From: Escherichia coli
GTDB lineage: Bacteria; Pseudomonadota; Gammaproteobacteria; Enterobacterales; Enterobacteriaceae
Length of the DNA stretch: 64,000 nt
Strand: one strand, 5' to 3'
NCBI RefSeq assembly: GCF_003334305.1
Contig: NZ_QOWS01000008.1
The translations under genes were made by a program, and so were the position numbers. Under the pieces are notes generated by a model. That model saw nothing but the letters and a program-made list of their open reading frames with translations, searched no databases and was not told the origin of the DNA. This document shows, piece by piece, positions 32,619-33,671 of this stretch (position 1 is the first letter of the stretch; each line of letters starts with the position of its first letter).

Positions 32619-33671
32619 GTGAACATATATATCGGGTGGCTTTTCAAATTAATCCCTTTGATTATGGGATTAATTTGCATCGCGTTAGGTGGCTTTGTGC
32701 TGGAAAGTTCAGGGCAAAGCGAGTATTTCGTCGCGGGTCATGTGCTGATTTCTCTGGCGGCCATATGCCTGGCATTATTCACTACCGCATTTATTATCAT
32801 TTCGCAGCTCACGCGCGGCGTTAATACGTTTTACAATACATTGTTCCCCATTATTGGCTATGCGGGGTCAATTATCACCATGATATGGGGTTGGGCACTG
32901 TTAGCAGGCAATGATGTGATGGCAGACGAGTTTGTCGCCGGCCATGTTATTTTCGGCGTTGGTATGATTGCCGCCTGTGTATCGACGGTGGCAGCGTCAT
33001 CCGGTCACTTTCTGCTCATTCCCAAAAATGCAGCGGGGAGCAAGAGCGATGGAACGCCGGTACAGGCTTATTCTTCATTAATCGGTAATTGCCTCATTGC
33101 CGTTCCCGTTTTACTCACCCTGCTCGGTTTCATTTGGTCTATTACGCTGTTACGTAGTGCTGACATAACTCCGCATTATGTCGCGGGTCACGTATTGCTT
33201 GGGTTAACCGCAATCTGTGCCTGTCTAATTGGCCTTGTTGCCACAATTGTCCATCAAACACGTAATACGTTTTCAACTAAAGAACACTGGCTGTGGTGTT
33301 ATTGGGTTATTTTTCTCGGCTCAATCACGGTACTGCAGGGGATATACGTCTTAGTCAGTTCCGATGCAAGCGCCCGACTGGCTCCCGGCATTATTCTTAT
33401 TTGCCTCGGAATGATCTGTTACAGCATATTCTCAAAAGTCTGGCTACTGGCACTGGTATGGAGACGTACCTGTTCGTTAGCCAACAGAATACCGATGATT
33501 CCCGTCTTCACCTGCCTGTTTTGCCTTTTCCTGGCATCGTTTCTTGCGGAAATGGCGCAGACCGACATGGGATATTTTATTCCTTCGCGGGTTTTGGTCG
33601 GTTTAGGAGCGGTATGCTTTACGTTGTTCTCAATCGTTTCAATATTAGAAGCAGGTTCTGCTAAAAAATAA
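32619..33671 (+). CDS. yhiM: Inner membrane protein YhiM
   Basis: Start chosen at GTG preceded by GAGGAG (VNIYIGWLFKLIPL...), giving 350 aa; three internal (Y/F)VAGHV repeat modules. Confidence 0.82.
   Translation: MNIYIGWLFKLIPLIMGLICIALGGFVLESSGQSEYFVAGHVLISLAAICLALFTTAFIIISQLTRGVNTFYNTLFPIIGYAGSIITMIWGWALLAGNDVMADEFVAGHVIFGVGMIAACVSTVAASSGHFLLIPKNAAGSKSDGTPVQAYSSLIGNCLIAVPVLLTLLGFIWSITLLRSADITPHYVAGHVLLGLTAICACLIGLVATIVHQTRNTFSTKEHWLWCYWVIFLGSITVLQGIYVLVSSDASARLAPGIILICLGMICYSIFSKVWLLALVWRRTCSLANRIPMIPVFTCLFCLFLASFLAEMAQTDMGYFIPSRVLVGLGAVCFTLFSIVSILEAGSAKK

Follow-up and report, generated by a model that had tools for sequence, protein, structure and literature searches.

What architecture lies behind three near-identical motifs in an Escherichia coli inner-membrane protein is the question raised by yhiM, a gene of the 64,000-nt stretch of contig NZ_QOWS01000008.1 (assembly GCF_003334305.1) analyzed here and called the window. 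Its product, YhiM, matched Pfam family DUF2776 (PF10951) over its whole length (E = 1.3e-158; residues 1-347 aligned with positions 1-347 of the 348-position model); the Pfam search gave no other significant match, and NCBIfam holds no model for the family. The initial annotation described three copies of a module that opens with (E/H)(Y/F)VAGHV and continues into a Cys-containing helix, attributed them to triplication of a two-helix hairpin, expected three-fold pseudo-symmetry, and suggested that the His of each copy lines a proton or ion pathway. We found that the 350 residues form five tandem hairpins of ~68 residues, each consisting of helix A, a short acidic periplasmic turn, and helix B (Table 1). 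We are highly confident of the fivefold repeat and of its origin by duplication.

The three modules exist as described. VAGHV occurred exactly three times, with spacings of 68 and 82 residues; the copies were preceded by EYF, DEF, and PHY, and each was followed by a Cys-containing helix, the span in question (32721-33220) corresponding to E35-A201. A pentapeptide occurring at least three times was found in 13 of 20,000 composition-preserving shuffles. When units 1-3 were aligned with each other over ~60 residues, z was 6.8-11.2 against plain shuffles, and the self-alignment remained significant against shuffles that preserve local hydropathy (z = 4.8-7.5). The modules are real and not due to chance, but the repeats number more than three.

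Two further copies lay outside that span, in the contexts L-APGII and F-IPSRV, with a Cys spaced from the motif as in the other units. In register, unit 1 matched units 4 and 5 better (z = 11.3 and 12.1) than it matched unit 2 (z = 6.8; plain shuffles), and the same was seen with block shuffles keeping local hydropathy (z = 8.1 and 7.7 versus 4.8). The 77-sequence family alignment (mostly close relatives; effective depth ~3.2) was then split into five unit sub-alignments for profile comparison with hhalign. All 10 unit-versus-unit comparisons were in register, with scores of 26.9-78.9 and hhalign probabilities of 70-98.8%, whereas 20 column-reversed profile controls scored 5.6-14.9 (probability ≤2.5%). 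A hidden Markov model (HMM) built from any single unit recovered the other four at the expected places; that of unit 1 scored 18.0, 35.3, 24.8, and 30.6 bits on them, compared with 7.4 bits for the best reversed-sequence control over all five unit HMMs. The five-unit alignment had 65 columns, with the consensus ..IP.........G..LL........fvaGhVl.GLgaiC..l...v....r. A pooled unit HMM detected exactly five units in 127 of the 131 relatives of at least 320 residues, including members 24-30% identical to E. coli YhiM.

These comparisons bear directly on the reading in which units 1-3 are a triplicated hairpin joined to an unrelated four-helix C-terminal part, with three-fold symmetry and a three-His proton path. 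In its favor, only three VAGHV copies are exact, and the His is common in close relatives (Table 1). That units 4 and 5 resemble unit 1 more than unit 2 does, and that single-unit HMMs and profile comparisons recover all five units, both argue strongly against it, as do the fold matches (to five-fold or closed barrels, see below) and the joint presence of the three His in only 3 of 18 divergent members (cluster representatives <50% identical to E. coli YhiM). We consider that reading very improbable. What stands of the triplication is the tandem duplication of a hairpin, helices A and B both aligning between units; the copy number is five rather than three, and the pseudo-symmetry to be expected is consequently five-fold.

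A repeat signal could also be an artefact of transmembrane (TM) composition or hairpin hydropathy, or could reflect convergent reuse of a short motif and not common descent. TM segments do inflate alignment scores, and the similarity between A helices was weak (median hhalign score of 13). However, z values of up to 8.1 were left by the shuffles that keep local hydropathy, and the reversed profiles, with equal composition and hydropathy pattern, stayed well below the true pairs. The similarity between units was ~60 residues long and took in the Pro and Gly positions of helix A. In addition, E. coli TehA, a ten-helix, five-hairpin barrel, showed no self-similarity in an equal test (off-diagonal self-alignment score of 49, z = 2.5, within the shuffle range, versus 139, z = 13.6, for YhiM). 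There is thus very little to recommend an explanation by composition or convergence.

Most of the repeat signal was carried by helix B: B-B profile scores were 22-53 and A-A scores 6-23, whereas A-B scores (5.6-11.9) were at background. Because A-A and B-B align while A-B stays at background, the repeat unit is the A+B hairpin. An inverted repeat with an odd-helix shift, as in 5+5 transporters, found no support in the same A-B scores, and all units have the same orientation. At the DNA level, the repeat was confined to 26 nt of the motif region in units 1, 2, 3, and 5 (65-77% identity; nothing longer), which indicates that the duplication is ancient and not recent. The family alignments were collinear and, together with the five units found in nearly all relatives, this indicates that the five-copy state was already established when the family began to diversify. 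No free-standing single-hairpin relative, or relative with another copy number, was found with a 70-unit profile among 5.8 billion proteins, although this search needs shared 5-residue words and the absence is weak evidence; it returned only DUF2776 proteins, nearly all of them short E. coli or Shigella fragments. Some members are longer than YhiM: P0183 (445 aa) has an insertion of ~115 residues between units 2 and 3, and P0196 (495 aa) and P0131 (479 aa) have soluble-looking C-terminal extensions of ~115-160 residues.

Table 1. Features of yhiM in the window (feature; coordinates in the window; strand; description; conservation counts refer to the 77-sequence alignment)
yhiM coding sequence, whole-length DUF2776	32619..33671	+	GTG start, 350 codons plus stop
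Repeat unit 1	32619..32819	+	residues 1-67; A1 3-30, periplasmic turn, B1 34-65
Repeat unit 2	32820..33056	+	residues 68-146; A2 70-95, B2 102-130, longer cytoplasmic linker
Repeat unit 3	33057..33260	+	residues 147-214; A3 153-178, B3 184-214
Repeat unit 4	33261..33464	+	residues 215-282; A4 220-247, B4 251-279; outside the span first annotated
Repeat unit 5	33465..33668	+	residues 283-350; A5 293-312, B5 317-347; outside the span first annotated
Motif copy 1, VAGHV	32730..32744	+	residues 38-42, periplasmic end of helix B1
Motif copy 2, VAGHV	32934..32948	+	residues 106-110
Motif copy 3, VAGHV	33180..33194	+	residues 188-192
Degenerate motif copy 4, APGII	33381..33395	+	residues 255-259; family consensus APGCV; Gly kept, His position Ile/Cys/aromatic
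Degenerate motif copy 5, IPSRV	33579..33593	+	residues 321-325; family consensus (V/I)PARV; Arg at His position
Motif Gly, per unit			72, 76, 75, 73 of 77 in units 1-4; Ala/Ser instead in unit 5
His position (+1), per unit			of 77: His 61, His 71, His 67, Cys 41 or aromatic/Ile (unit 4), Arg 66 (unit 5)
Cys50, unit 1	32766..32768	+	10 residues past motif Gly; 72/77
Cys120, unit 2	32976..32978	+	shifted to +12, Ala at +10; 74/77
Cys200, unit 3	33216..33218	+	invariant, 77/77
Cys267, unit 4	33417..33419	+	75/77
Cys333, unit 5	33615..33617	+	74/77

Judged from the aligned sequences, the strongest constraint falls on the motif Gly and on one Cys per unit, and the His is the least conserved element of the motif. 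In the divergent set, G108, G190, C200, and P295 were kept in 18 of 18 members and C120, C267, and C333 in 17, compared with 4 for H41, 14 for H109, and 13 for H191; one member (P0136) has none of the three His. Because all three so rarely occur together, a His proton pathway common to DUF2776 appears unlikely. The proposed pathway agrees with the topology in that the His lie near the periplasmic ends of B1-B3, but a His is present in three of the five units and is poorly kept in divergent relatives; such a path may be possible for the E. coli lineage and is unlikely to be the conserved function of the family.

B helices were better conserved than A helices (mean column entropy of 1.61 versus 2.04 bits, P = 1e-5), with more small residues and fewer aromatics. 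Four stripes were distinguished along helix B by their offsets from the motif Gly: one of small residues (Gly, Gly/Ala, Cys) at 0, 7, and 10, one of large hydrophobic residues at 2, 6, 9, and 13, a small/polar stripe aligned with the His position at 1, 5, 8, 12, and 15, and a variable stripe at 4, 11, and 18. Conserved charges were also observed in the cytoplasmic half of two B helices: Lys273 (33435-33437, B4; at least 90% in the 77-sequence alignment, 14 of 18 divergent members) and Glu344 (33648-33650, B5; 67 of 77 and 10 of 18). The equivalent end of units 1 and 3 has an R-Q pair in the family (S62-Q63 and H212-Q213 in E. coli), and these positions could together be a cytoplasmic-side charge ring.

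Lys and Arg numbered 9 in the inter-unit loops and termini versus 1 in the intra-hairpin turns, which are acidic. This distribution fits an N-in/C-in topology, and ten TM helices with that topology have been predicted for YhiM (PMC6604978). An AlphaFold2 model made from the 77-sequence alignment (predicted local distance difference test, 95.1; predicted template modeling score, 0.94) had ten long helices in agreement with the A/B assignments, so that the ten TM helices and two cytoplasmic termini characteristic of DUF2776 were found from the model and the Lys/Arg counts. With N-in/C-in topology, each B helix has the motif, with the His, approximately two turns in from its periplasmic end. A profile search of PDB sequences detected no solved structure of a YhiM relative. 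By fold, the model matched closed barrels, toroids, and the quasi-five-fold TehA/SLAC1 fold, the list including SLAH1 (11.2), SLAH3 (10.6), and SLAC1 (8.0-8.6); the three-fold pseudo-symmetry expected initially gives way to these matches and to the five units. On the strength of the model, the chain likely closes into a pseudo-five-fold barrel. That the B (even-numbered) helices form its inner ring is favored with somewhat less assurance, because they are more conserved and richer in small residues.

The resemblance to barrels has been noticed before. In a 2024 design study, Foldseek searches with single-chain parallel barrels consistently returned the YhiM AlphaFold model; its authors describe it as based on five central helices and find no natural protein more strikingly similar, and they mention neither TehA nor any sequence repeat (PMC11288890). 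Among the 48 AlphaFold proteomes covered by a published survey, the only natural parallel single-chain alpha-helical barrels were YhiM and some proteins similar to it.

Our overall reading, a single chain of five hairpins forming a pseudo-five-fold barrel with an axial channel or facilitator, is probable when taken as a whole. In each hairpin, helix A runs from cytoplasm to periplasm, usually with I-P near its start plus a Gly, and helix B returns to the cytoplasm; it opens with phi-V-A-G-H-V (phi, hydrophobic) and has small residues in a stripe, namely Gly at +5 and +7 and Cys at +10. A-G-H is kept in units 1-3, with P-G-(C/I/aromatic) in unit 4 and P-(A/S)-R in unit 5. Repeated duplication and fusion of a two-helix homo-oligomeric protein would be the most economical origin. 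The B helices would form the parallel inner ring of a two-layer barrel, with the A helices as a buttress, and the barrel axis may serve as a channel or facilitator for small solutes, the conserved Gly and Cys allowing tight inner-ring packing or lining the path. His41, His109, His191, residue 258, and Arg324 would form a partial ring near the periplasmic mouth, lineage-specific and possibly pH- or metal-sensitive.

The function taken alone, that of a pore or facilitator for small solutes, is proposed only tentatively. It fits the reported YhiM-dependent export of gamma-aminobutyric acid (GABA): a yhiM mutant had approximately half the GABA export at pH 5, overexpression raised export across pH 2.5-5.5, and a yhiM homolog lies between gadB and gadC in Clostridium perfringens (PMC6604978). 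The published studies also cite YhiM for acid survival and for growth under heat and at low osmolarity, the low-osmolarity role through a title cited in PMC6604978.

The main rival to a channel or facilitator keeps the same five hairpins but packs them into a barrel lacking a conducting path, which would act as a membrane scaffold or sensor restraining CpxAR, the GABA, acid, osmotic, and copper phenotypes being indirect. Loss of YhiM activates CpxAR constitutively, and the copper resistance of the mutant needs both cpxA and cpxR (PMC11005409); stripes of Gly and Cys are typical of tight helix packing, the cavities of designed five-helix barrels were too narrow for a reporter dye (PMC11288890), and YhiM phenotypes are pleiotropic and strain-dependent. 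On the other hand, GABA export follows YhiM dosage in both directions, each B helix bears a conserved small/polar stripe aligned with the His position, and the nearest natural architecture is that of a channel and transporter family. We regard the packed scaffold as possible but rather doubtful.

A metal pathway is a minor possibility. The barrel would then be a soft-metal route for Cu(I), with the Cys of each unit and the periplasmic His as ligands, and would provide copper entry at the inner membrane. His and Cys are classical copper ligands, and no side chain in the family is better conserved than the single Cys of each unit (Table 1). The yhiM mutant of the uropathogenic strain CFT073, in which CpxAR is active, was copper-resistant and accumulated less cell-associated copper under copper stress, but no such effect was seen in K-12, and the authors report that copper import persists and ascribe the phenotype to Cpx activation and copA induction (PMC11005409). 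Moreover, the unit-2 Cys is two residues out of register, so that there is no perfect Cys ring, and by helical wheel the Cys at +10 appears to fall on the Gly stripe and not on the His stripe, which suggests a packing role. A copper route is therefore unlikely. Equally hard to credit is the more elaborate version, a single-chain pseudo-pentameric channel with a five-Cys inner ring and a His/His/His/x/Arg periplasmic collar that conducts a soft cation such as Cu(I) or gates GABA or ion flux in response to pH or metal; were such a Cu(I)-conducting channel real, DUF2776 would become a candidate for the route, long sought, by which copper enters E. coli across the inner membrane.

A copper motif, MXXXM, has been reported for YhiM of uropathogenic E. 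coli (PMC11005409) and appears to be MGFKM of CFT073 (NC_004431.1; L014, 9197-9211), in which an N-terminal extension of four codons (MGFK) leads up to the Met now used by RefSeq as the start. In the window (32607-32621), the GTG start follows ...EEFK and no Met occurs four codons upstream. The motif consequently depends on the start codon chosen and would sit at the cytoplasmic N-terminus.

The form of yhiM used here (1053 nt) is that of RefSeq, although the longest reading of the open reading frame (ORF) opens at ATG 32520. Read from the upstream in-frame ATGs (32520-32618), the ORF has 383 residues (start at 32520) or 364 residues (start at 32577; MHISLLAGIPEEFK...), and the latter (P0001) represents a 4700-member cluster in the protein collection. 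The transcription start has been mapped 22 nt upstream of the GTG (PMC6604978), and the longer forms are for this reason probably start-codon mis-calls. The DNA of yhiM was 100% identical to that of several E. coli genomes, in which it is labeled yhiM or DUF2776. The gene is flanked by a DUF4049 gene at the yhiL position and, on the other side, by yhiN, pitA, uspB, and uspA. A stretch of low GC content (28500-32500; 33-40% GC versus 50-59% on both sides) spans the DUF4049 genes yhiJ and yhiL; yhiM itself has ~44-46% GC. A 485-residue ORF (30646-32103, minus strand) occupies the place of a frameshifted DUF4049 pseudogene in strain H15, and in CFT073 both yhiJ and yhiL are absent between yhiY and yhiM. 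The yhiJ/yhiL segment looks like a horizontally acquired, variable one.

The yhiM region (32300-33800) was found in 4256 of 5426 complete E. coli genomes, with at least 80% coverage in 4171, and the protein databases hold many shortened E. coli and Shigella YhiM fragments, which suggests that the gene is often lost or disrupted. Identity to homologs fell from at least 79% for the closest (the named ones all E. coli) directly to ~60%, where the named relatives were Alphaproteobacteria, Betaproteobacteria, and Actinomycetota. DUF2776 is a small family (258 clusters at 50% identity among 1.84 billion representatives), and its patchy distribution suggests, on the sequence comparisons, horizontal transfer. 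No conserved operon was found among seven homolog neighborhoods, in which the neighbors were PepSY_TM, GSCFA, EamA/MFS, TrkH, MscL, and DUF975. Neighbors related to osmotic or ion homeostasis were MscL, ~0.9 kb upstream of the homolog (L011, L012 3603-4089), TrkH, ~0.4 kb downstream (L009 6474-7817), and a Na+/H+ exchanger with a TrkA_N domain at 5 kb (L007 1-116); none recurred across loci.

Earlier publications already cover the gene, the family, and the five-central-helix appearance of the AlphaFold model. In the searchable literature, which has few mentions of DUF2776, we found nothing on internal repeats of YhiM, and no description of the fivefold sequence repeat, the Gly and Cys of each unit, the degenerate units 4 and 5, or the comparison with TehA/SLAC1. 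YhiM recurs in studies of acid, GABA, osmotic stress, heat, and copper/Cpx, and both a mechanism and a solved structure are lacking. The five-copy view moves the emphasis away from the His, reduces mutagenesis to equivalent positions (the motif Gly, the His/His/His/Ile/Arg position, the Cys of each unit, Lys273, and Glu344), and predicts a five-fold barrel, with its axis as the evident candidate for a pathway. The same view also offers a rare example from nature of a pseudo-symmetric membrane barrel whose sequence still records its history of duplication, and a natural parallel single-chain barrel of interest to protein designers.

Among known systems, the TehA/SLAC1/SLAH anion channels and the wider tellurite-resistance/dicarboxylate transporter family (PF03595) share with YhiM ten helices arranged as five tandem hairpins and the asymmetry of the loops; the closed two-layer arrangement, quasi-five-fold around a central pore in that family, is predicted for YhiM too. 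The pore of that family is made by the odd-numbered helices (PMC10645844), whereas the inner ring of YhiM is probably made by the even-numbered ones, as conservation suggests. The family also has a conserved gating Phe and a homotrimeric assembly. A sequence link was sought and rejected: YhiM did not match PF03595 at E values up to 10, the profile search of PDB sequences returned neither TehA nor SLAC1, and hhalign gave a probability of 0.1% against E. coli TehA, for which the homolog search found only sequences at least 81% identical and the profile is shallow. Finally, the internal sequence repeat is plain in YhiM, whereas TehA has none despite the five-hairpin barrel of its solved structure.

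Designed single-chain parallel alpha-helical barrels (sc-CC-5/6/7/8) and circular tandem-repeat toroids (cTRP9, 6xr1) resemble YhiM in architecture. These designs are soluble and evolutionarily unrelated to YhiM, with n-1 outer helices, whereas YhiM is natural, lies in the membrane with a lipid-facing exterior, and has five outer helices. MscL is a homopentamer of two-helix N-in/C-in subunits around a central axis, with the first helix lining the pore. It gave no sequence or fold match to YhiM in any search made, and it differs in having five separate chains and the first helix at the pore, against one chain and a second helix that is probably the inner one in YhiM. By analogy, an MscL-like homopentamer is a plausible picture of the ancestor of YhiM before fusion. 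YhiM belongs with the pseudo-symmetric membrane barrels built from duplicated hairpins, of which it is an unusually legible example.
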